Shown: one piece after another, positions 1 through 7,964 of the stretch | How the letters are laid out: every line of letters starts with the position of its first letter | How positions within the stretch are numbered: position 1 is the stretch's first letter | Source: an uncultured archaeon | GTDB taxonomy: Archaea; Asgardarchaeota; Lokiarchaeia; Sigyniarchaeales; Promethearchaeaceae | Reading direction: 5' to 3' | Length of the DNA stretch: 7,964 bases | Assembly (NCBI GenBank): GCA_964426185.1 | Contig: CAYRPF010000107.1 | Location: forward strand, 1-7,964 | Notes under the pieces: generated by a model | Seen by the model: only the letters and a program-made list of their open reading frames with translations | Told to the model about the DNA's origin: nothing | The model's database searches: none | Position numbers and translations under genes: made by a program

Positions 1-1246
1 CATAATTGATTTCAAAAGAACCATCAACTTCTTCTCCATAAAGGTTTAATACGGGATAATCTGGTACGGGATTATGGGGATCGTATGTAAATATATCCTT
101 TGTTTCTTGCGTTGGCGCTTTACGTTGAAGTTTACCTGTTCCTTTTGAAGATTGTGCATTTCCATCACTATTTAAGTATAATTCTAGTTTTCCTTTTTCG
201 ATAGAAGGCAAAGCGACATCAAAATTTTGCCATTTATTTTCTCCCATTAAAAACAGCTGAGTTCTTTTCCATTCGGAAACTTCATTTTTGATTCCCTTTA
301 ACCAGTAATCAAACCATTTAAGATGAACTTCTCTCATGTTAAGCACTGCTTGGGGGCCATAATCAATACCCCGGAGCTGTTGCTTTGGAGCTCCTGTTCC
401 TCCATGATTCCAAGGGCCAATCAATAAATAAATTTGGTCTGGTTTTGGGGTATTTTCAAGCACTTTCTGATATGCCCAAAGAGTACCGCGGAGAGAATCA
501 TCATGCCATCCGCTAATAAACAACATCGGGATGTTCATTTGCGAACACTCTTCTTTACTTGCACGATTACTTTTCCAGAATTCGTCTAAATTCGGGTGTT
601 CTAAGATTTTTTGCCAGCTAGAAAGTGTTTTTCCGATTTTTTTATCCATTGTTTTTAATGGTAAATGAAACAAGATATGATCCCAATCAATTGCAGTAAG
701 AATATTGCACTGATTTGATCTTCCACTTACAAAGAAAAGCCATTGAAGGTTCTCCAATCTTGGAATCCCATTACTGAAGGGAATGGTTTCCATCAAATCA
801 GGAACAAGGGCCTGTGGTATTATGGCTTTCAGATAGGGGGGATTTTTTCGGGCAGCATCCCATTGCACCGCACCTTCATAGCTTCCCCCTCGCATTCCCA
901 CATTTCCATTACACCATGGTTGGGCTGCGATCCATTCAATTGTATCATAACCATCATTTCCTTCATTATATTCATCAAAAATTCCATCAGAATCGCCCCT
1001 TCCTCGTACATCTTGGAATACAAAGGCATATCCATGTTGAGCGAAAAATTTTCCGACATTGACACAATATATTTCTTCATTGCCATATGGTGTTCTTTGT
1101 AGAATTGCAGGGAAAGCCCCTTCTTCATATGGTAAATACACTTCGCTAGATAAAAGAGTTCCATCGCGCATTGGTGTTTTTACATCCCATAAAACACGAA
1201 TGGGTTTGTCGGGTTTGTCCGATTTGTCATTGACTTTAGACTCCAT
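1..1246 (-). CDS. CocE/NonD family hydrolase (peptidase S15 / X-Pro dipeptidyl-peptidase-like alpha/beta hydrolase), 3' end outside window
   Basis: Manual translation from ATG at 1246-1244 is open for 415 codons to the window edge: MESKVNDKSDKPDKPIRVLWDVKTPMRDGTLLSSEVYLP...LQRTPYG...FQDVRGRGDSDG...DGYDTIEWIAAQPWCNGNVGMRGGSYEG...ISGWHDD...LIGPWNHG...WFDYWLKG...FTYDPHNPVP. Hallmark CocE motifs are PMRDG, RTPY (oxyanion Tyr54), GGSY nucleophile (Ser122, nt 881-883), GWxD (Asp249) and GPWxH (His281). No signal peptide. Absent from the ORF track because there is no stop in the window. Confidence 0.95.
   Translation of the reverse strand, partial: MESKVNDKSDKPDKPIRVLWDVKTPMRDGTLLSSEVYLPYEEGAFPAILQRTPYGNEEIYCVNVGKFFAQHGYAFVFQDVRGRGDSDGIFDEYNEGNDGYDTIEWIAAQPWCNGNVGMRGGSYEGAVQWDAARKNPPYLKAIIPQALVPDLMETIPFSNGIPRLENLQWLFFVSGRSNQCNILTAIDWDHILFHLPLKTMDKKIGKTLSSWQKILEHPNLDEFWKSNRASKEECSQMNIPMLFISGWHDDSLRGTLWAYQKVLENTPKPDQIYLLIGPWNHGGTGAPKQQLRGIDYGPQAVLNMREVHLKWFDYWLKGIKNEVSEWKRTQLFLMGENKWQNFDVALPSIEKGKLELYLNSDGNAQSSKGTGKLQRKAPTQETKDIFTYDPHNPVPDYPVLNLYGEEVDGSFEINY
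1202..1228 (-). repeat. 3 x 9-bp imperfect in-frame repeat (DKS-DKP-DKP) at the hydrolase N-terminus
   Basis: + strand reads gggtttgtc gggtttgtc cgatttgtc. Confidence 0.7.
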
Positions 1247-1416: not shown

Positions 1417-1956
1417 ATGGTGATTACTCTGGGTAAACCAAAAACAAAGGAAAATGCACTCGAATTTAAATATATCAATTATAATCGTATCGGAGCTATC
1501 TTTTTTATAATTCTTCTCATTTTTATTGGATTTTTTGGCTTCATATGCAATTATTATGGAGAAGGACCTATAGACTCTTCTCTAATATGGTATTATCAAC
1601 TTTTTTTCAAAGTGACATTATCCAAAAATATCTTTTTGTTAAAATCTATTCCTGTACTCCCTCTAATCTTGACTTTTACAGGTTATTACTTGACCAACCG
1701 TGAAGAACTCTCACTTAAAGGAATTAAAATTTCTCTTTATTTTATTCCTTTAACTCACCTTTTATCAATTCTATGGTATTGGTTTAATGTTTCTCAAATA
1801 AATATTGAACCCATACGGCTTTTATTTGCTACTTGGCAAGGTTATCTGACAATATTTCTCACAATCGCTTGTATCTTGTTCGGATCCTTCATTGGTATAA
1901 AGGTCAAACAATATAAACTGCTGAAAAGAAAATTAATTTTAAAAAAGGAAGTATAG
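1417..1956 (+). CDS. Uncharacterised integral membrane protein (about 4 TM), first gene of the ABC cluster
   Basis: 179-aa ORF with hydrophobic segments at about aa 25-45, 72-92, 103-123 and 143-161. N- and C-termini are Lys-rich (both inside by the positive-inside rule). Co-oriented with dppB, 74 nt upstream. Confidence 0.85.
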   Translation: MVITLGKPKTKENALEFKYINYNRIGAIFFIILLIFIGFFGFICNYYGEGPIDSSLIWYYQLFFKVTLSKNIFLLKSIPVLPLILTFTGYYLTNREELSLKGIKISLYFIPLTHLLSILWYWFNVSQINIEPIRLLFATWQGYLTIFLTIACILFGSFIGIKVKQYKLLKRKLILKKEV

Positions 1957-1980
1957 AATTGATTTAAAGGTGTTATTCGA

Positions 1981-2014
1981 ACTAAAAAAATACCAAAACT
2001 AAAAAAATACCAAA
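1981..2014. repeat. Perfect 17-bp tandem duplication in the intergenic region upstream of dppB
   Basis: ACTAAAAAAATACCAAA at 1981-1997 and 1998-2014, followed by a partial degenerate start (GCTA). Confidence 0.9.
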
Positions 2015-2030
2015 GCTAGCGTGAAAAAAT

Positions 2031-3074
2031 ATGGCAAATATGTTAGTGTATATCACAAAAAGGATTTTAATGACAATTCCAATGATCTTGATTTTAATTG
2101 TTTTAACGTGGTTTTTAGCCTATTTAATGCCGGGCGATCCAACATCCTTTTTCCCACCGACAACATCTCCAAGCAAAATTGCAGAATTCAGAGAACTTTG
2201 GGGATTGGATAAGCCGTGGTACGGACAACTATGGACCTACCTCCAAGGGCTTTTTCACGGAGATCTTGGCGAATCAATCCAAGTTTCACCTGGGGCAAAA
2301 GTGGTCGATCTCATGGCAGTTTATATTCCGCGGTCGATTCAAATCGCCATTTTCCCTATCATGCTAATCCCCTTTATAGGTATAAAAACTGCACTTGTTT
2401 CTGTAAAAAATAAAGATAAGTGGCAAGATACATTCGTCCGGGGATTATCGGTCTTATTAATTTCGACTCCAGCCTTCTTTTTTGCACTAATTTTGCAATT
2501 GATATTCGGCTACTGGTTACCAACAAATTTCGGGGAAGATTTTATCAATATTCCCGTGATCGGTCTCTTTTCCCATGAATTGGGAAGTCCACCGACCTTA
2601 ACCGGATTTCGACTAATTGACTGTTTGCTTGCAAATGACTTGCACCTCTTCTTAGATACAGTAGAGCATCTAATATTACCCGTCGCATGCCAAACGCTCT
2701 TGACCTTTGCAGTGGTTACCAGACAAACACGTACGAGTTTACTTGACATATTAGACCAAGATTATATACGTACGGCCAGGGCAAAAGGCTGTTCAAGAGA
2801 TTTTGTATATAATAAGCACGCTTTAAGAAATGCGCTTATTCCAGCCACCACCGTCATCGTTGTGAATGCTGCATATCTACTTGCTGGATCAGTGATAATC
2901 GAAATTTCCTTTGGAATCCGAGGTATGGGCATGATATTCATTGAAGCGCTGACGACTAATGACTATTGGCTTATCGTTGGCAATGTTCTTTATGTAGGGA
3001 TCGTAATTATTCTGGGCAATTTATTAGCTGATTGTTTGTACACGATTATTGATCCAAGGATCATCTATAAATAA
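2031..3074 (+). CDS. dppB: Peptide/nickel ABC transporter permease, DppB/OppB family
   Basis: N-terminal YITKRIL...LMPGDP; WGLDKPWYGQLWTYLQGLFHGDLGES; DppB-type loop TGFRLIDCLL...HLILP; EAA-loop equivalent DYIRTARAKG...KHALRNA; C-terminal ADCLYTIIDPRI. Confidence 0.95.
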   Translation: MANMLVYITKRILMTIPMILILIVLTWFLAYLMPGDPTSFFPPTTSPSKIAEFRELWGLDKPWYGQLWTYLQGLFHGDLGESIQVSPGAKVVDLMAVYIPRSIQIAIFPIMLIPFIGIKTALVSVKNKDKWQDTFVRGLSVLLISTPAFFFALILQLIFGYWLPTNFGEDFINIPVIGLFSHELGSPPTLTGFRLIDCLLANDLHLFLDTVEHLILPVACQTLLTFAVVTRQTRTSLLDILDQDYIRTARAKGCSRDFVYNKHALRNALIPATTVIVVNAAYLLAGSVIIEISFGIRGMGMIFIEALTTNDYWLIVGNVLYVGIVIILGNLLADCLYTIIDPRIIYK

Positions 3075-3114
3075 TATAATCTAAGAGAAATTCACAGTTT
3101 AGAGGAAAAAAAAT

Positions 3115-4182
3115 ATGACCCAAAATAATTCAAACACTTCTGATAATAAAAAAAAATTCTGTTCATGGAAAAAATTCTTATTCAAGCCAGATTTGCCAAA
3201 AAATAACCCGACCGATATTGCATTGATTAAAAATCAAGCAAAGGGTAAGGTGTGGGTAGAATATCTAAAGTTTTTCTTGATTCCCACATACCAGTCAGAT
3301 TCATTCTCAGCTTTAGAGACTGCTCTTATTGAAGAAAATAGCCGAAGGTCAACATTTCGGAAAATGCTAACACCGTTGACGATCATCGGATCGCTTATCA
3401 TTATATTTATGGTGTTTTTGGCAGTATTTGCGCCTTGGTTGTCCCCTTATACTTATAAACAGTTGTCTTTAAGCCAATTTCCTGGCGCTTACGCTCCACC
3501 TTCCCCAGAACACTTTTTAGGAACAACTTTATATGGGCGAGATATATTAGGAAGAATCATATATGGCGCACGTGAATCGCTCACATTAGGGATCTCGGCC
3601 ATTCTAATTAGTTATGTCTTTGGAACGATATTTGGGCTGATTGCCGCCTATTTTGGAGGAAAGGTTGATACGATTATCATGCGTATTTTTGACCTCCTTA
3701 TGACTTTACCAGGACTAGTAATAGTTCTCCTTTTTGGGGCAATATTCGGGAGAACTATGAATGTTTATATGATCTCTTTTGGAATATTGATGATTCCCGA
3801 AAATGCCCGGCTTATCCGGAGTCAAGTGCTTATTGTCAAGCAATGCCAGTATGTTGAAGCCGCGAGAATTTCAGGAGCTAAAGATTTTCGGATTATGTTT
3901 AAACATATTCTCCCGAATTCAATAGCGCCAATGATAATTTCTGCGTCATTTTCAATGGGTGCCACCATTTTAGGTATTACGGCCCTTACTTTTCTGGGTA
4001 TGGGAGAACCTAATGTGGTCGAATGGGGTGGGGATGTCAATCTGGGAAAATCAATGGTTTTCCAAGCCCCTTGGGCATTTTTCTGGCCAGGTTTTTTTAT
4101 AATAATTACAGTTTTTGGGTTTATTTTATTGGGAGACGGATTGGTAGATGTTTTTAATCCACGCAATACCACAGAAAATTAG
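3115..4182 (+). CDS. dppC: Peptide/nickel ABC transporter permease, DppC/OppC family, with extended N-terminus
   Basis: AVFAPWLSPY; PPSPEHFLGTTLYGRDILGRIIYGARESL; EAA motif YVEAARISGAKDFRIMFKHILPN; EWG...APW...PG; LLGDGL...FNPR. GAGG at 3102-3105 precedes the ATG. Confidence 0.95.
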   Translation: MTQNNSNTSDNKKKFCSWKKFLFKPDLPKNNPTDIALIKNQAKGKVWVEYLKFFLIPTYQSDSFSALETALIEENSRRSTFRKMLTPLTIIGSLIIIFMVFLAVFAPWLSPYTYKQLSLSQFPGAYAPPSPEHFLGTTLYGRDILGRIIYGARESLTLGISAILISYVFGTIFGLIAAYFGGKVDTIIMRIFDLLMTLPGLVIVLLFGAIFGRTMNVYMISFGILMIPENARLIRSQVLIVKQCQYVEAARISGAKDFRIMFKHILPNSIAPMIISASFSMGATILGITALTFLGMGEPNVVEWGGDVNLGKSMVFQAPWAFFWPGFFIIITVFGFILLGDGLVDVFNPRNTTEN

Positions 4183-4186
4183 GAGG
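4181..4186 (+). promoter_or_regulatory. Shine-Dalgarno site for the TM-fused dppD
   Basis: AGGAGG, 7 nt before the ATG at 4194 and overlapping the dppC TAG stop. Confidence 0.75.
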
Positions 4187-4193
4187 ATATAAG

Positions 4194-6176
4194 ATGATAT
4201 TATTGTTTATTTTAAGCCAAAAACGTTTGTATGCCATGATATTTGAACAGATATTCTTGATCTTTATGGTATATATCTTGTTTCAAGCCATTAACAAATT
4301 TGGTAAAGGAAAAGATCGTCATTTACCGACGAAATTTCTATTTCGGAAATCTTTTCCCATCATAACAGCCTTAACCATTCCAATTTTTATTGTTCGCTTT
4401 ATCTTGGAATTTATCGGAATCCGGTCGAGTTTACTCTTTTTTCTCGGCCTCCACTTGACCATCGTCTTAGTGATCCATCTCAAAATCTATCAGAAGGGCT
4501 TGATAGAAACAAGGGGAGAAGAACACTTTGACTATTATGCACAATACCACAAAAATTATATAATTTCTATATGGGGATTTCTGATAATTGGCTTTGCTTA
4601 CCAGTCAATAAGATTGGTTGAAAGTTTGACTGATCAGACATTACTTTTACCCAGTATTATGGAGAATTATGAATTTACTGCTATTGTTATGGCTGTGTGT
4701 TATGCAATAACGAAATTAATTAATTTAACAATACAAGAAAATAAACGTTTAGCCCCAATAATCTTTAACAAGTCAATTCTTTTTTCTATGGGCTTGTCTT
4801 GTGGACCTTGGCTTCTTTTCATTACGATATATGGACTGATTGTACGGGCAGCTCCTTTTCAAGTCTTCGGTTTTGGAATTCTAGTCCTTCTTTACATCAT
4901 TACATTCTTAGTCATTTCGCGAATTGTCTCGAAATCAGAGCAAAAGAAATTTGAACAAAAGATGCTCGAAGAATTCCAAGCTAAGTGCAACTCTTGTAAT
5001 TGTGATAACCAGAAAAAGGAAGAAGTTATACTCAGTGTCCGTGATTTAGTTACTTATTTCTATACTGATGAAGGGATTGTAAGGGCTGTGGAAGGAGTTT
5101 CCTTTAATATTTATAACAATGATATTTTAGGATTAGTAGGAGAATCTGGTTGTGGTAAATCTGTGACCGCTCTCTCTATTTTGCGGTTGGTTCGACCGCC
5201 AGGAAAAACTGTAAGTGGACAAGTGCTTTTCCATGATGAAGATCTCCTTAAGAAATCAGAAGATGAGATCTTAAAATATCTAGGAGATAGAATTACCATG
5301 ATTTTCCAAGATCCTTTAAATTCACTTAACCCTGTTTTTAAAATCGGGGATCAGTTAACTGAAGTGTATCATTTACACAAATCCGATGAATTGATTGCTG
5401 CAATGAAGACTTGTGAAGAAAAATTGGCAGATTTAAAGGAAGAATTTGCAAAAATTAATTTACAATTGGAAAAGTTGGAATTCAAAGATGATGATGCTTT
5501 GTTAACGAAAAAACAGGAGTTAGAAAAGGATATTGAAATGCACCAAAAATTCACTTCTCCTTATTCCATTGCACGGGAAAATGTTATCGAATTATTGAAG
5601 GATGTAGGTATCCCAGACCCTGAGATGGTCTATGACCGATATCCACATGAGTTGAGCGGTGGAATGCGACAAAGGGTCATGATTGCAATGGCTTTGGCAT
5701 GTTGTCCAGAACTATTGATCGCGGACGAGCCTACTACTGCTTTGGATGTAACAATTCAAGCCCAAATATTAGATCTTATCGTGGATTTACAGAAAAAATA
5801 TAATACTTCTATCCTTTTCATCACCCATGATTTGGGTATTATCTCACAGATCTGTCAACGCGTTGCGGTTATGTACTGTGGATATATAGTCGAATATGGA
5901 AATGCAAAAGATATCTTTCAAAATCCAAGCCATCCATATACCCAAGGATTACTCGAAGCTATTCCACGAATCGGTATAGAAAAAGATAAATTGCCTGAGA
6001 TCCCGGGGTCTGTTCCAAACCTTTTACACCCACCAACGGGATGTCGATTCCATCCCAGGTGTAAGCATCGTTTTGAGCCTTGTGATAAGGTCACGCCCAA
6101 AATGATTGAAGTGGGTAAAAACAAGTTTGTTGCCTGCCATTTATATGATCCAGCTTATGTTCCACAAGAGGTGTAA
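4194..6176 (+). CDS. dppD: DppD/OppD-type ABC ATPase fused to an N-terminal ~7-TM domain of unknown function
   Basis: aa 13-245 contain seven hydrophobic segments. The NBD starts at about aa 279: Walker A GESGCGKS (316-323), Q-loop FQDP, signature LSGGMRQR, Walker B LLIADEPTTALD, H-loop ITHD, HPYT motif and C-terminal CRFHPRC-x6-C-x17-C. Confidence 0.93.
   Translation: MILLFILSQKRLYAMIFEQIFLIFMVYILFQAINKFGKGKDRHLPTKFLFRKSFPIITALTIPIFIVRFILEFIGIRSSLLFFLGLHLTIVLVIHLKIYQKGLIETRGEEHFDYYAQYHKNYIISIWGFLIIGFAYQSIRLVESLTDQTLLLPSIMENYEFTAIVMAVCYAITKLINLTIQENKRLAPIIFNKSILFSMGLSCGPWLLFITIYGLIVRAAPFQVFGFGILVLLYIITFLVISRIVSKSEQKKFEQKMLEEFQAKCNSCNCDNQKKEEVILSVRDLVTYFYTDEGIVRAVEGVSFNIYNNDILGLVGESGCGKSVTALSILRLVRPPGKTVSGQVLFHDEDLLKKSEDEILKYLGDRITMIFQDPLNSLNPVFKIGDQLTEVYHLHKSDELIAAMKTCEEKLADLKEEFAKINLQLEKLEFKDDDALLTKKQELEKDIEMHQKFTSPYSIARENVIELLKDVGIPDPEMVYDRYPHELSGGMRQRVMIAMALACCPELLIADEPTTALDVTIQAQILDLIVDLQKKYNTSILFITHDLGIISQICQRVAVMYCGYIVEYGNAKDIFQNPSHPYTQGLLEAIPRIGIEKDKLPEIPGSVPNLLHPPTGCRFHPRCKHRFEPCDKVTPKMIEVGKNKFVACHLYDPAYVPQEV
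6168..6173 (+). promoter_or_regulatory. Shine-Dalgarno site for the TM-fused dppF
   Basis: GAGGTG in the last codons of dppD, 8 nt before the ATG at 6182. Confidence 0.65.
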
Positions 6177-6181
6177 ATAAA

Positions 6182-7603
6182 ATGCTTTTGCGTATAGATA
6201 TCTCATTAGAAGCCATTACATGGATTTTATTAGTTACTTCCTTCGCTCTCATCTTGGCAGTTGGATTTTTTTATGTTTTTTCAGGGATCAAAATTCAATT
6301 AGTCGAAGAGAAGAAATTGCGTTTGATTTTGATTGCTTCCATTTTACCTGGGAGTATCTTTTATTTTACCATTTCTGGATTAGTCCTATGGAGTAATTCG
6401 GTCACCAGCATCTTCAGTATTCCAATCGATTTACAAAGTTTTACACTTGGGACCGGTGAAATAGGAGGCACATGGTCGAAATTCCTTCTCATTTCCGTAG
6501 GATTCAATCTAACTTTGGGGATCATCCTAAAGCAACTTGCGTTCCATTCTTTAGCTAATATGAAGAAAGGATTTAGTGTGTCTTCCGTTGAAATTGGAAA
6601 GAAAATCTTGCAAGTCGAAAATTTAAATGTTTACTATCCAATATATGGTGGAATATTAAAACGAGCTACAGGATTTGTAAAAGCAGTCAACGGCGTTTCA
6701 TTTACAATCAAAGCAGGAGAAACCATGGGTTTGGTTGGGGAAAGTGGTTGTGGAAAATCTACTCTCGCTAAAGCAATATTGGGGTTAGTAGATATTCATG
6801 AAGGAAGAATTTTATTCAACAATGATGAATTGCACTACCCTATCGAAAATGAATTTCGACGCCGAATCCAAATTGTATTTCAAGATCCCGACGCTTCACT
6901 CAACCCGCGTATGAAGATTGTAGATATCTTGGGTGAACCCCTCCGTAATCTGATGGGAATGACAAATAAAGACGATATTCGAGAGGCCGCAGTCCAATTG
7001 TTGGAAAAGGTCTCACTAAAACGTGAATATTTAGAACGTTTTCCCCATGAGTTTTCGGGTGGGCAGAAACAGCGGATCACCATTGCTCGTGCCCTCGCAT
7101 GTAATCCAGAATTGATCATCCTAGATGAACCAACTTCAGCCTTGGATGTCTCTGTGCAAGCGGGAATATTAAACTTATTGAAAGATTTGCAACGAGAATT
7201 TGGGTATGCTTATCTTTTTATTACCCACAATCTATCCGTCGTAGACAACATCGCAAATAATGTGGCGGTCATGTATCTGGGGAGATTTGTGGAGTATGGG
7301 CCTGTAAAAGAGATTTTTTCCAATCCGATACACCCGTATACGCAAGCACTCCTTTCTGCACGTACTGAAGTTTGTTATGACAATACTATTAAACGGATTA
7401 TATTAGAAGGTGAAGTGCCCAGCCCCATAAATCTTCCTGAAGGGTGTTATTTTCATCCACGATGCAATAATCCAAATCGTACCGACAAATGTAAATCTAT
7501 TCCACCAAAAGCTTTGAATTATGGAAATAATCATTTAGTTTGGTGCTATGATAATTCTCACTGCTGTGTTGAAGTGAATGACGATTATCTAATCAGTAAT
7601 TGA
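6182..7603 (+). CDS. dppF: DppF/OppF-type ABC ATPase fused to an N-terminal ~3-TM domain of unknown function
   Basis: Hydrophobic segments at aa ~12-34, 48-70 and 101-121. The NBD starts at about aa 142: VKAVNGVSF, Walker A GESGCGKS (186-193), FQDPDASLNPR, FSGGQKQR, LIILDEPTSALD, ITHN, HPYT and CYFHPRC-x8-C-x17-C. Confidence 0.93.
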   Translation: MLLRIDISLEAITWILLVTSFALILAVGFFYVFSGIKIQLVEEKKLRLILIASILPGSIFYFTISGLVLWSNSVTSIFSIPIDLQSFTLGTGEIGGTWSKFLLISVGFNLTLGIILKQLAFHSLANMKKGFSVSSVEIGKKILQVENLNVYYPIYGGILKRATGFVKAVNGVSFTIKAGETMGLVGESGCGKSTLAKAILGLVDIHEGRILFNNDELHYPIENEFRRRIQIVFQDPDASLNPRMKIVDILGEPLRNLMGMTNKDDIREAAVQLLEKVSLKREYLERFPHEFSGGQKQRITIARALACNPELIILDEPTSALDVSVQAGILNLLKDLQREFGYAYLFITHNLSVVDNIANNVAVMYLGRFVEYGPVKEIFSNPIHPYTQALLSARTEVCYDNTIKRIILEGEVPSPINLPEGCYFHPRCNNPNRTDKCKSIPPKALNYGNNHLVWCYDNSHCCVEVNDDYLISN

Positions 7604-7606
7604 TAA

Positions 7607-7641
7607 TTTTTATTCATTTTTTCGTGACATTTTTTTATTTT
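7607..7641 (+). terminator. Putative T-tract (archaeal-style) terminator of the ABC cluster
   Basis: T5 (7607-7611), T6 (7617-7622), T7 (7630-7636) and T4 (7638-7641) directly follow the dppF stop, with no GC-rich hairpin. Confidence 0.5.
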
Positions 7642-7964
7642 CCTTCTCATATTGTATTTTTAATGAATATAATCAAGTATTCTACCAGGTCTTCTTAATC
7701 TTACATTTGTCTCTCCACGAAATCGGAAAATAGAATGAGTTGTACAGAAAAATAAGGGGTTTTCAGAAAACTTAAATTGCGATCTGCCGCTTAAATACCC
7801 CATATCTGTTGAAGTTTGCGGTACATTCCGCACGCTAGAATCTTTAAATTCATGCCGAAAGTATTCCGAATTATTGAATAGGACCAGTAGATATCATTTA
7901 GTAAATGGCTTTCACCGCCTTATTCGAAAATCCCAATATCTAGATGGTCAAATAGAATTGGAAA

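Follow-up and report, generated by a model that had tools for sequence, protein, structure and literature searches.

A probable variant Dpp-type ABC importer of Lokiarchaea with membrane domains fused to both predicted ATPases

The stretch of DNA analysed here, referred to as the window, comprises 7,964 nucleotides (nt) and is the whole of contig C107 of a Lokiarchaeal genome of 3.26 Mb with 34% GC, homologues of which bear the name Promethearchaeota. It carries a predicted operon in the order 4-TM gene (TM, transmembrane helix), dppB, dppC, [7TM]-dppD and [3TM]-dppF, in which both ATPases of a Dpp/Opp-type ATP-binding cassette (ABC) importer are fused to N-terminal membrane domains of seven and three helices, respectively. 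The membrane domain of DppD is matched in 44 of the 154 genomes from the order, the 48 related loci examined all show the fusion, and the membrane modules belong to no known family, so that the original prediction of an undescribed, conserved architecture holds. With a probability of roughly 0.5 we regard the system as a working binding-protein-dependent type I importer, in which the extra helices anchor the ATPases to the membrane and surround the complex as a peripheral belt, stabilising or tuning it.

The gene layout and the intact motifs of the nucleotide-binding domains (NBDs), first noticed from the letters alone, were borne out by open reading frames, Pfam and hydropathy. Five co-oriented frames are present (Table 1), and the two fused ones span 4194-6176 (660 amino acids, aa) and 6182-7603 (473 aa). 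Pfam assigns BPD_transp_1 to DppB and DppC, and ABC_tran together with oligo_HPY to DppD and DppF; no Pfam or NCBIfam match was obtained on DppD residues 1-272, DppF residues 1-136 or the 179-aa protein encoded first. Hydropathy gives 7 helices for the DppD domain (D domain), 3 for the DppF domain (F domain) and 3-4 for the 179-aa protein. In both NBDs Walker A, signature, Walker B glutamate, D-loop and H-switch are all intact, and none of the internal starts near the NBDs is preceded by a ribosome-binding site. DppD carries in addition a coiled-coil-like insertion of ~65 residues in its helical subdomain (window positions 5376-5543), which is common to unfused Lokiarchaeal DppD, including the one on contig C102.

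Type I importers are usually taught as soluble ATPases beneath two permeases. The window's system has a BPD_transp_1 pair with coupling helices, oligo_HPY ATPases with four C-terminal cysteines and, as described below, a family-5 binding protein, all recognised from sequence; in place of soluble peripheral ATPases it has conserved 7-TM and 3-TM fusions. Because the defining parts are present except for the soluble ATPases, it is best classified as a variant of the Dpp/Opp importer and not as a canonical member.

The genomes matched by a profile of the D domain fall into three families and often hold multiple copies; a genome may have as many as about three complete ones, and paralogues differ in their module sets. 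The matching frames are nearly always open over 630-1100 aa, and one of the genomes is a single contig. Outside the order, one match was found in ~225 sampled genomes, making the domain close to order-specific among the genomes searched; G010 and G011 gave no match for the fused type and both carry the unfused type. Mapping of gene neighbourhoods showed the fused dppD behind dppB and dppC in all 48 related loci, followed by a membrane-fused dppF wherever the contig reaches (44 DppF proteins with an N-terminal membrane domain). D and F domains were seen only on Dpp ATPases and always together. Among 8000 scored candidates, D domains outside a fusion were limited to two short proteins, which are encoded on contigs of 0.8-2 kb and are probably fragments. 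Catalytic motifs are intact in 45 fused DppD and 43 fused DppF proteins. In the unrooted DppD tree a 98/88 branch splits fused from unfused proteins, in line with one origin of the fusion.

An assembly artefact or read-through was rejected, as the fusions persist in open frames in all 44 genomes, and contigs from four other sequencing runs, no single one of which spans the whole stretch, show indels solely between genes and none in any coding part. The same applies to a second deviating explanation, a binding-protein-independent importer or exporter comparable to E. coli SapBCDF in putrescine export. No binding protein is encoded on C107 and the adjoining gene encodes a hydrolase, and the original prediction had noted this absence as a feature of the system. 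However, it is true only of the 8-kb contig: of the 48 related loci, 47 have a family-5 binding protein, usually divergent, inside the sequence retrieved, and the exception stops at a contig edge. The window's genome encodes four such proteins. The one on contig C18 has an intact gene with a Loki-CTERM anchor, pairs in the tree with the binding protein beside the orthologous operon of G001 (Shimodaira-Hasegawa approximate likelihood ratio test, SH-aLRT, 99), and finds its best matches by far in the G001 protein and its G119 equivalent (E 5e-84 vs 5e-18 for the next). On tree position and match scores, the C18 gene is taken to encode the cognate binding protein of the window's importer. A binding-protein-free system is thereby largely refuted, and either deviation, artefact included, is barely credible. 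As the system has a binding protein, the extra helices need not feed substrate to the importer, a role that had been suggested for them.

The D domain was modelled with AlphaFold2 (AF2) from 70 sequences at a predicted local distance difference test (pLDDT) score of 87, showing seven long helices and a single continuous helix that connects the domain to its NBD. An earlier model from 3 sequences (pLDDT 57) was discarded together with the fold search based on it. Lysine and arginine counts favour an N-out/C-in topology for both fused domains, which would place the NBDs in the cytoplasm. Within the D domain TM1-2 resemble TM5-6 (hhalign 96%, E 1e-9; reversed control 2%), whereas a comparison of the D with the F domain gave no homology (~1%, equal to reversed controls). 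A single repeated 3-TM unit underlying both domains was therefore rejected, the repeat being supported only inside D. Equally, no homology was found among D, F, accessory and permease domains, which speaks against duplicated copies of DppB/DppC or of the accessory protein as the source of the extra domains.

Separate searches with the modules found no described accessory family, and no Pfam, NCBIfam or PDB family matched the extra domains. Fold searches with the pLDDT-87 model convincingly matched no PDB structure, which is not proof of a new fold; the top row of the Atlas fold search was the D-domain family's own cluster, and the best solved structures (Z 8.0 over ~100 residues) were unrelated helical bundles. 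Type IV ABC exporters and other permease-ATPase fusions resemble the window's proteins in that a single chain has a membrane domain ahead of an NBD, and bacterial DppC-DppD fusions likewise join a BPD_transp_1 permease to an ATPase. However, in the type IV exporters and permease-ATPase fusions the fused domain is the pore, whereas the Lokiarchaeal pore would be formed by DppBC as separate proteins, and neither type is matched by the fused domains. Type IV exporter membrane domains have six helices and both ends in the cytoplasm, in contrast to the 7 and 3 helices with N-out/C-in topology in the window.

The membrane domains are under purifying selection that is relaxed relative to the NBDs, with ratios of nonsynonymous to synonymous substitution (dN/dS) in relatives of 0.28-0.67 vs 0.05-0.24. 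Their helix number varies among relatives from about 3 to 17 in DppD and from 2 to 13 in DppF, gained by partial duplication or by insertion of an interchangeable 4-TM module. Relaxed dN/dS and variable helix number amount to the tolerance expected of a peripheral part. In a four-chain prediction the D domain packs on other chains with an ipSAE interface score of 0.49, compared with 0.00 for the best of 3 controls, one of which had DppB replaced; the runs agree in 100% of contacts, and the pLDDT of the partners is at least 67. The score dropped to 0 once DppB was replaced, with the F domain still present. This weakly suggests that the D domain packs against DppB, and the predicted contact fits the E. 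coli geometry, because there DppD docks on DppB (PMC12136057). The second membrane subcomplex proposed for the extra helices survives in part: anchoring or regulation fits, but a self-standing subcomplex is unsupported, the loss of the D-domain score without DppB being a weak argument against it.

We propose that the system would operate as a type I importer of the PepT family (Dpp/Opp, TC 3.A.1.5) in Lokiarchaea. Anchored in the membrane, a family-5 binding protein (the C18 gene product in this genome) would hand a peptide or related small solute to DppB and DppC, which would form the pore; DppD and DppF would dock on the coupling helices and burn ATP. In one operon lineage both ATPases would have acquired N-terminal membrane domains that hold them at the membrane beside the permeases, with the D domain lying against DppB, the partner of its own ATPase. 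Such a peripheral belt could stabilise or assemble the complex and could restrain or tune ATPase closure. The fused domains would then serve as scaffold or regulator outside the translocation path and form no second pore.

Several points weigh against this proposal. In the ipSAE benchmark 58 of 80 solved pairs passed, as did 2 of 110 mismatched ones, and passes at 0.60 or under comprised 7 of the 80 solved pairs and both mismatches; a value of 0.49 thus falls in a range where, unless there is a good prior, a pass is wrong more often than it is right. The tree join of the C18 and G001 binding proteins links two long branches. A tether alone needs one helix, not seven plus three. Finally, polar residues in TM6 are kept in most of the 70 D-domain sequences (W206 98%, Q209 92%, E214 90%, QDIR motif 87%), which suggests a binding site or a specific interface.

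It is possible, if less probable than the tethered importer, that the fused domains are a new membrane sensor or a second machine wired covalently to the importer ATPases. If true, an Asgard nutrient pump would be switched by, or drive, a separate membrane process, and module swaps and duplications would give paralogues different inputs. As a sensor, the 7-TM domain would bind a lipid, ion or solute and switch the attached ATPase, creating a regulated importer or transceptor. The N-out/C-in topology, the unbroken helix into the NBD, the intramembrane polar residues W206, Q209 and E214 with their ~90% conservation, and the paralogues with differing module sets would all suit such a function. 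But the window's own DppD lacks Q209, E214 and QDIR, its genus having largely lost the TM6 polar residues, and heavy length variation with relaxed selection argues in the same direction. Superposition of the whole D model on bundles of G-protein-coupled receptors (GPCRs) or rhodopsins was poor (TM-score ~0.2, Foldseek E 0.9 or worse); a weak profile match to an orexin receptor (E 0.008) covers 95 hydrophobic positions. We consider a sensor rather doubtful.

The D, F and accessory domains, with about 14 extra helices in total, might instead build a second transporter or channel that the same ATPases drive or gate, much as TrkH depends on SapD for K+ uptake. That D and F always co-occur would agree with this, and precedents exist in SapD/TrkE and in the membrane protein SapZ of a Dpp-type operon (PMC9629497). 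However, D and F are non-homologous and hence form no pseudo-symmetric pair, 13 of the 48 fused loci lack the accessory gene and unfused operons have it, and the coupling helices of DppBC already occupy the docking sites on the NBDs, all of which makes a second channel unlikely.

The interchangeable 4-TM module, itself of no known family, occurs inside long DppD and DppF proteins and also as a free 140-aa protein and in fusion to the GlnP/HisM-type permease of a polar amino-acid importer (L150:3366-4424, L148:4287-5405, L158:4211-4639). That Dpp ATPases and a polar amino-acid ABC permease acquired it independently, and that it exists alone, points to a generic importer role, for instance the targeting or clustering of importers in membrane regions such as protrusions through a membrane or cytoskeletal partner. 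But the module is absent from the window's proteins and genome and no partner was identified, so that localisation appears quite improbable as the function of the fused domains. Some DppB and DppC proteins of fused operons also carry two or three extra helices (L097:6715-7992, L108:10449-11675, L122:7335-8843, L049:530-1738).

The extra 4-TM subunit encoded at the head of the operon is present as predicted, but it is not special to the fused system. Its family was found in 34 of 61 relatives, with 85 representatives in a 1.8-billion library and no match in the other orders sampled. In the loci read first (L013-L039) the gene stands directly upstream of dppB in 27 of 27 cases; it is present in 35 of the 48 fused loci, at times on the far side of the binding-protein gene, and occurs in unfused Lokiarchaeal Dpp operons too. 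Its dN/dS in relatives is 0.11-0.41. As far as its distribution indicates, the protein is a general accessory of Lokiarchaeal Dpp systems that is older than or independent of the fusions.

Unfused Lokiarchaeal Dpp operons (G000:C102; the type in G010 and G011) share with the fused ones the accessory gene, a divergent binding protein and the DppD insertion, but have soluble ATPases and form a separate branch of the DppD tree. E. coli DppABCDF and OppBCDF (PDB 8Z1V-8Z1Z, 8Z21; PMC12136057) resemble the window's system in their pair of BPD_transp_1 permeases, each with a coupling helix, in having two different ATPases that end in a four-cysteine [4Fe-4S] domain, and in their family-5 binding protein. 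In contrast, E. coli DppD and DppF are soluble proteins of ~330 aa and the Lokiarchaeal system adds the 7-TM and 3-TM N-terminal domains, the ~65-aa DppD insertion and the leading 4-TM gene. The best sequence matches among solved structures are the PepT-family systems OppABCD and DppABCD of M. tuberculosis (PDB 8J5Q, 8WD9), where, unlike here, the two NBDs are joined in one soluble chain with no extra membrane domains. The Sap system (SapABCDF and SapZ) is also Dpp-type; its operon encodes an additional membrane protein, and one of its ATPases works for another membrane system as well (PMC9629497). Its ATPases are unfused, and the 4-TM protein has no Pfam or NCBIfam link to SapZ, no direct comparison having been made.

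In the literature and structures searched, with most subscription journals outside coverage, the fused architecture is not described. An entire lineage in which 10 to about 25 additional helices of unknown fold are joined to the two ATPases constitutes a new architecture; the fused importer is an attractive target for cryo-electron microscopy, and three or four membrane protein families new to science come with it. Lokiarchaea depend centrally on peptide uptake, and in the P. syntrophicum proteome a family-5 binding protein ranks first of all proteins (PMC11284389). The add-ons may therefore reveal the way in which nutrient uptake is regulated or organised in Asgard archaea. Fused and unfused operons in one genome provide a built-in comparison.

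Table 1. Positions of genes, domains and the repeat in the window
Feature	Position	Strand	Remarks and evidence
CocE/NonD (S15) serine hydrolase	1..1246	-	divergent, truncated by contig start; Pfam PF02129 E 6e-59; TIGR00976 above cut-off
4-TM accessory membrane protein, unnamed family	1417..1956	+	179 aa; no Pfam/NCBIfam match
DppB-type permease, coupling (EAA) helix intact	2031..3074	+	PF00528 + PF19300; RTARAKG motif
DppC-type permease, coupling helix intact	3115..4182	+	PF00528 + PF12911; EAARISG motif
DppD N-terminal 7-TM domain and linker helix, predicted N-out/C-in, internal duplication	4194..4985	+	hydropathy, AF2 model, K/R counts, hhalign
DppD ATPase domain, catalytic motifs intact, ~65-residue helical insertion, four C-terminal Cys	5025..6176	+	ABC_tran + oligo_HPY
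DppF N-terminal 3-TM domain, predicted N-out/C-in	6182..6589	+	hydropathy, K/R counts
DppF ATPase domain, motifs intact, four C-terminal Cys	6590..7603	+	ABC_tran + oligo_HPY
Dispersed ~410-nt non-coding repeat, left ~350 nt	7615..7964	.	assembly breaks here; last 17 nt = start of C18

The divergent gene predicted on the left is the CocE/NonD hydrolase gene cut by the contig end; a CocE gene also adjoins the orthologous operon in G001. The hydrolase would be cytoplasmic and the imported substrate is a possible target of its processing. Since CocE and Pab87-type peptidase genes flank orthologous operons, the substrate here is probably peptides or amides. In one fused subgroup of ~18 loci (e.g., L047:13844-16291) dppF is followed by one to three glycyl radical enzymes of ~815 aa and unassigned type, with an activating enzyme and an aldehyde ferredoxin oxidoreductase encoded nearby; the glycyl radical enzyme common in this position scores above none of the specific NCBIfam cut-offs. 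As one subgroup precedes glycyl radical enzymes, specificity likely differs among paralogues. A soluble protein of 285-355 aa with no Pfam or NCBIfam match lies alongside many Lokiarchaeal Dpp operons, fused and unfused (L021:615-1490, L040:551-1606 and others), and is absent from the window. At locus L043 of G011 the Dpp operon is split, with accessory-dppB-dppC and dppD-dppF ~9 kb apart on opposite strands, and on G000:C86 (L127:4835-5860) dppB stands by itself, its surroundings encoding neither DppC nor an ATPase or binding protein.

Scans for sigma-70 promoters and terminators gave chance level only, the sigma-70 model being ill-suited to archaea, and Rfam found no match in the window. The T-tracts reported on the right are present but belong to a dispersed ~410-nt repeat, of which they are the left end; this repeat has T-rich ends, over 20 partial copies, mostly at contig ends, and a full copy at G000:C30:31345-31755. 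Read depth over the repeat in the window is about ten times higher. The repeat contains no open reading frame and has no Rfam match; a MITE-like element (miniature inverted-repeat transposable element) or a group II intron remnant is a candidate identity. Because of the 17-nt identity between the window's end and C18, within the repeat, and a repeat variant seen only in C107, C18 and C124, the C18 binding-protein gene may lie ~900 bases past dppF on the same strand, this being one of at least two candidate joins. A join of both contig starts through the CocE gene was rejected, as the start of C18 lacks the CocE remainder. A group II intron reverse transcriptase/maturase gene (RVT_N, RVT_1, GIIM; L126:2671-4203) directly follows the cognate binding-protein gene on G000:C18, and at G119:C144:38966-42220 there is an open frame of 3622 aa in which two or more stretches resemble family-5 binding proteins.

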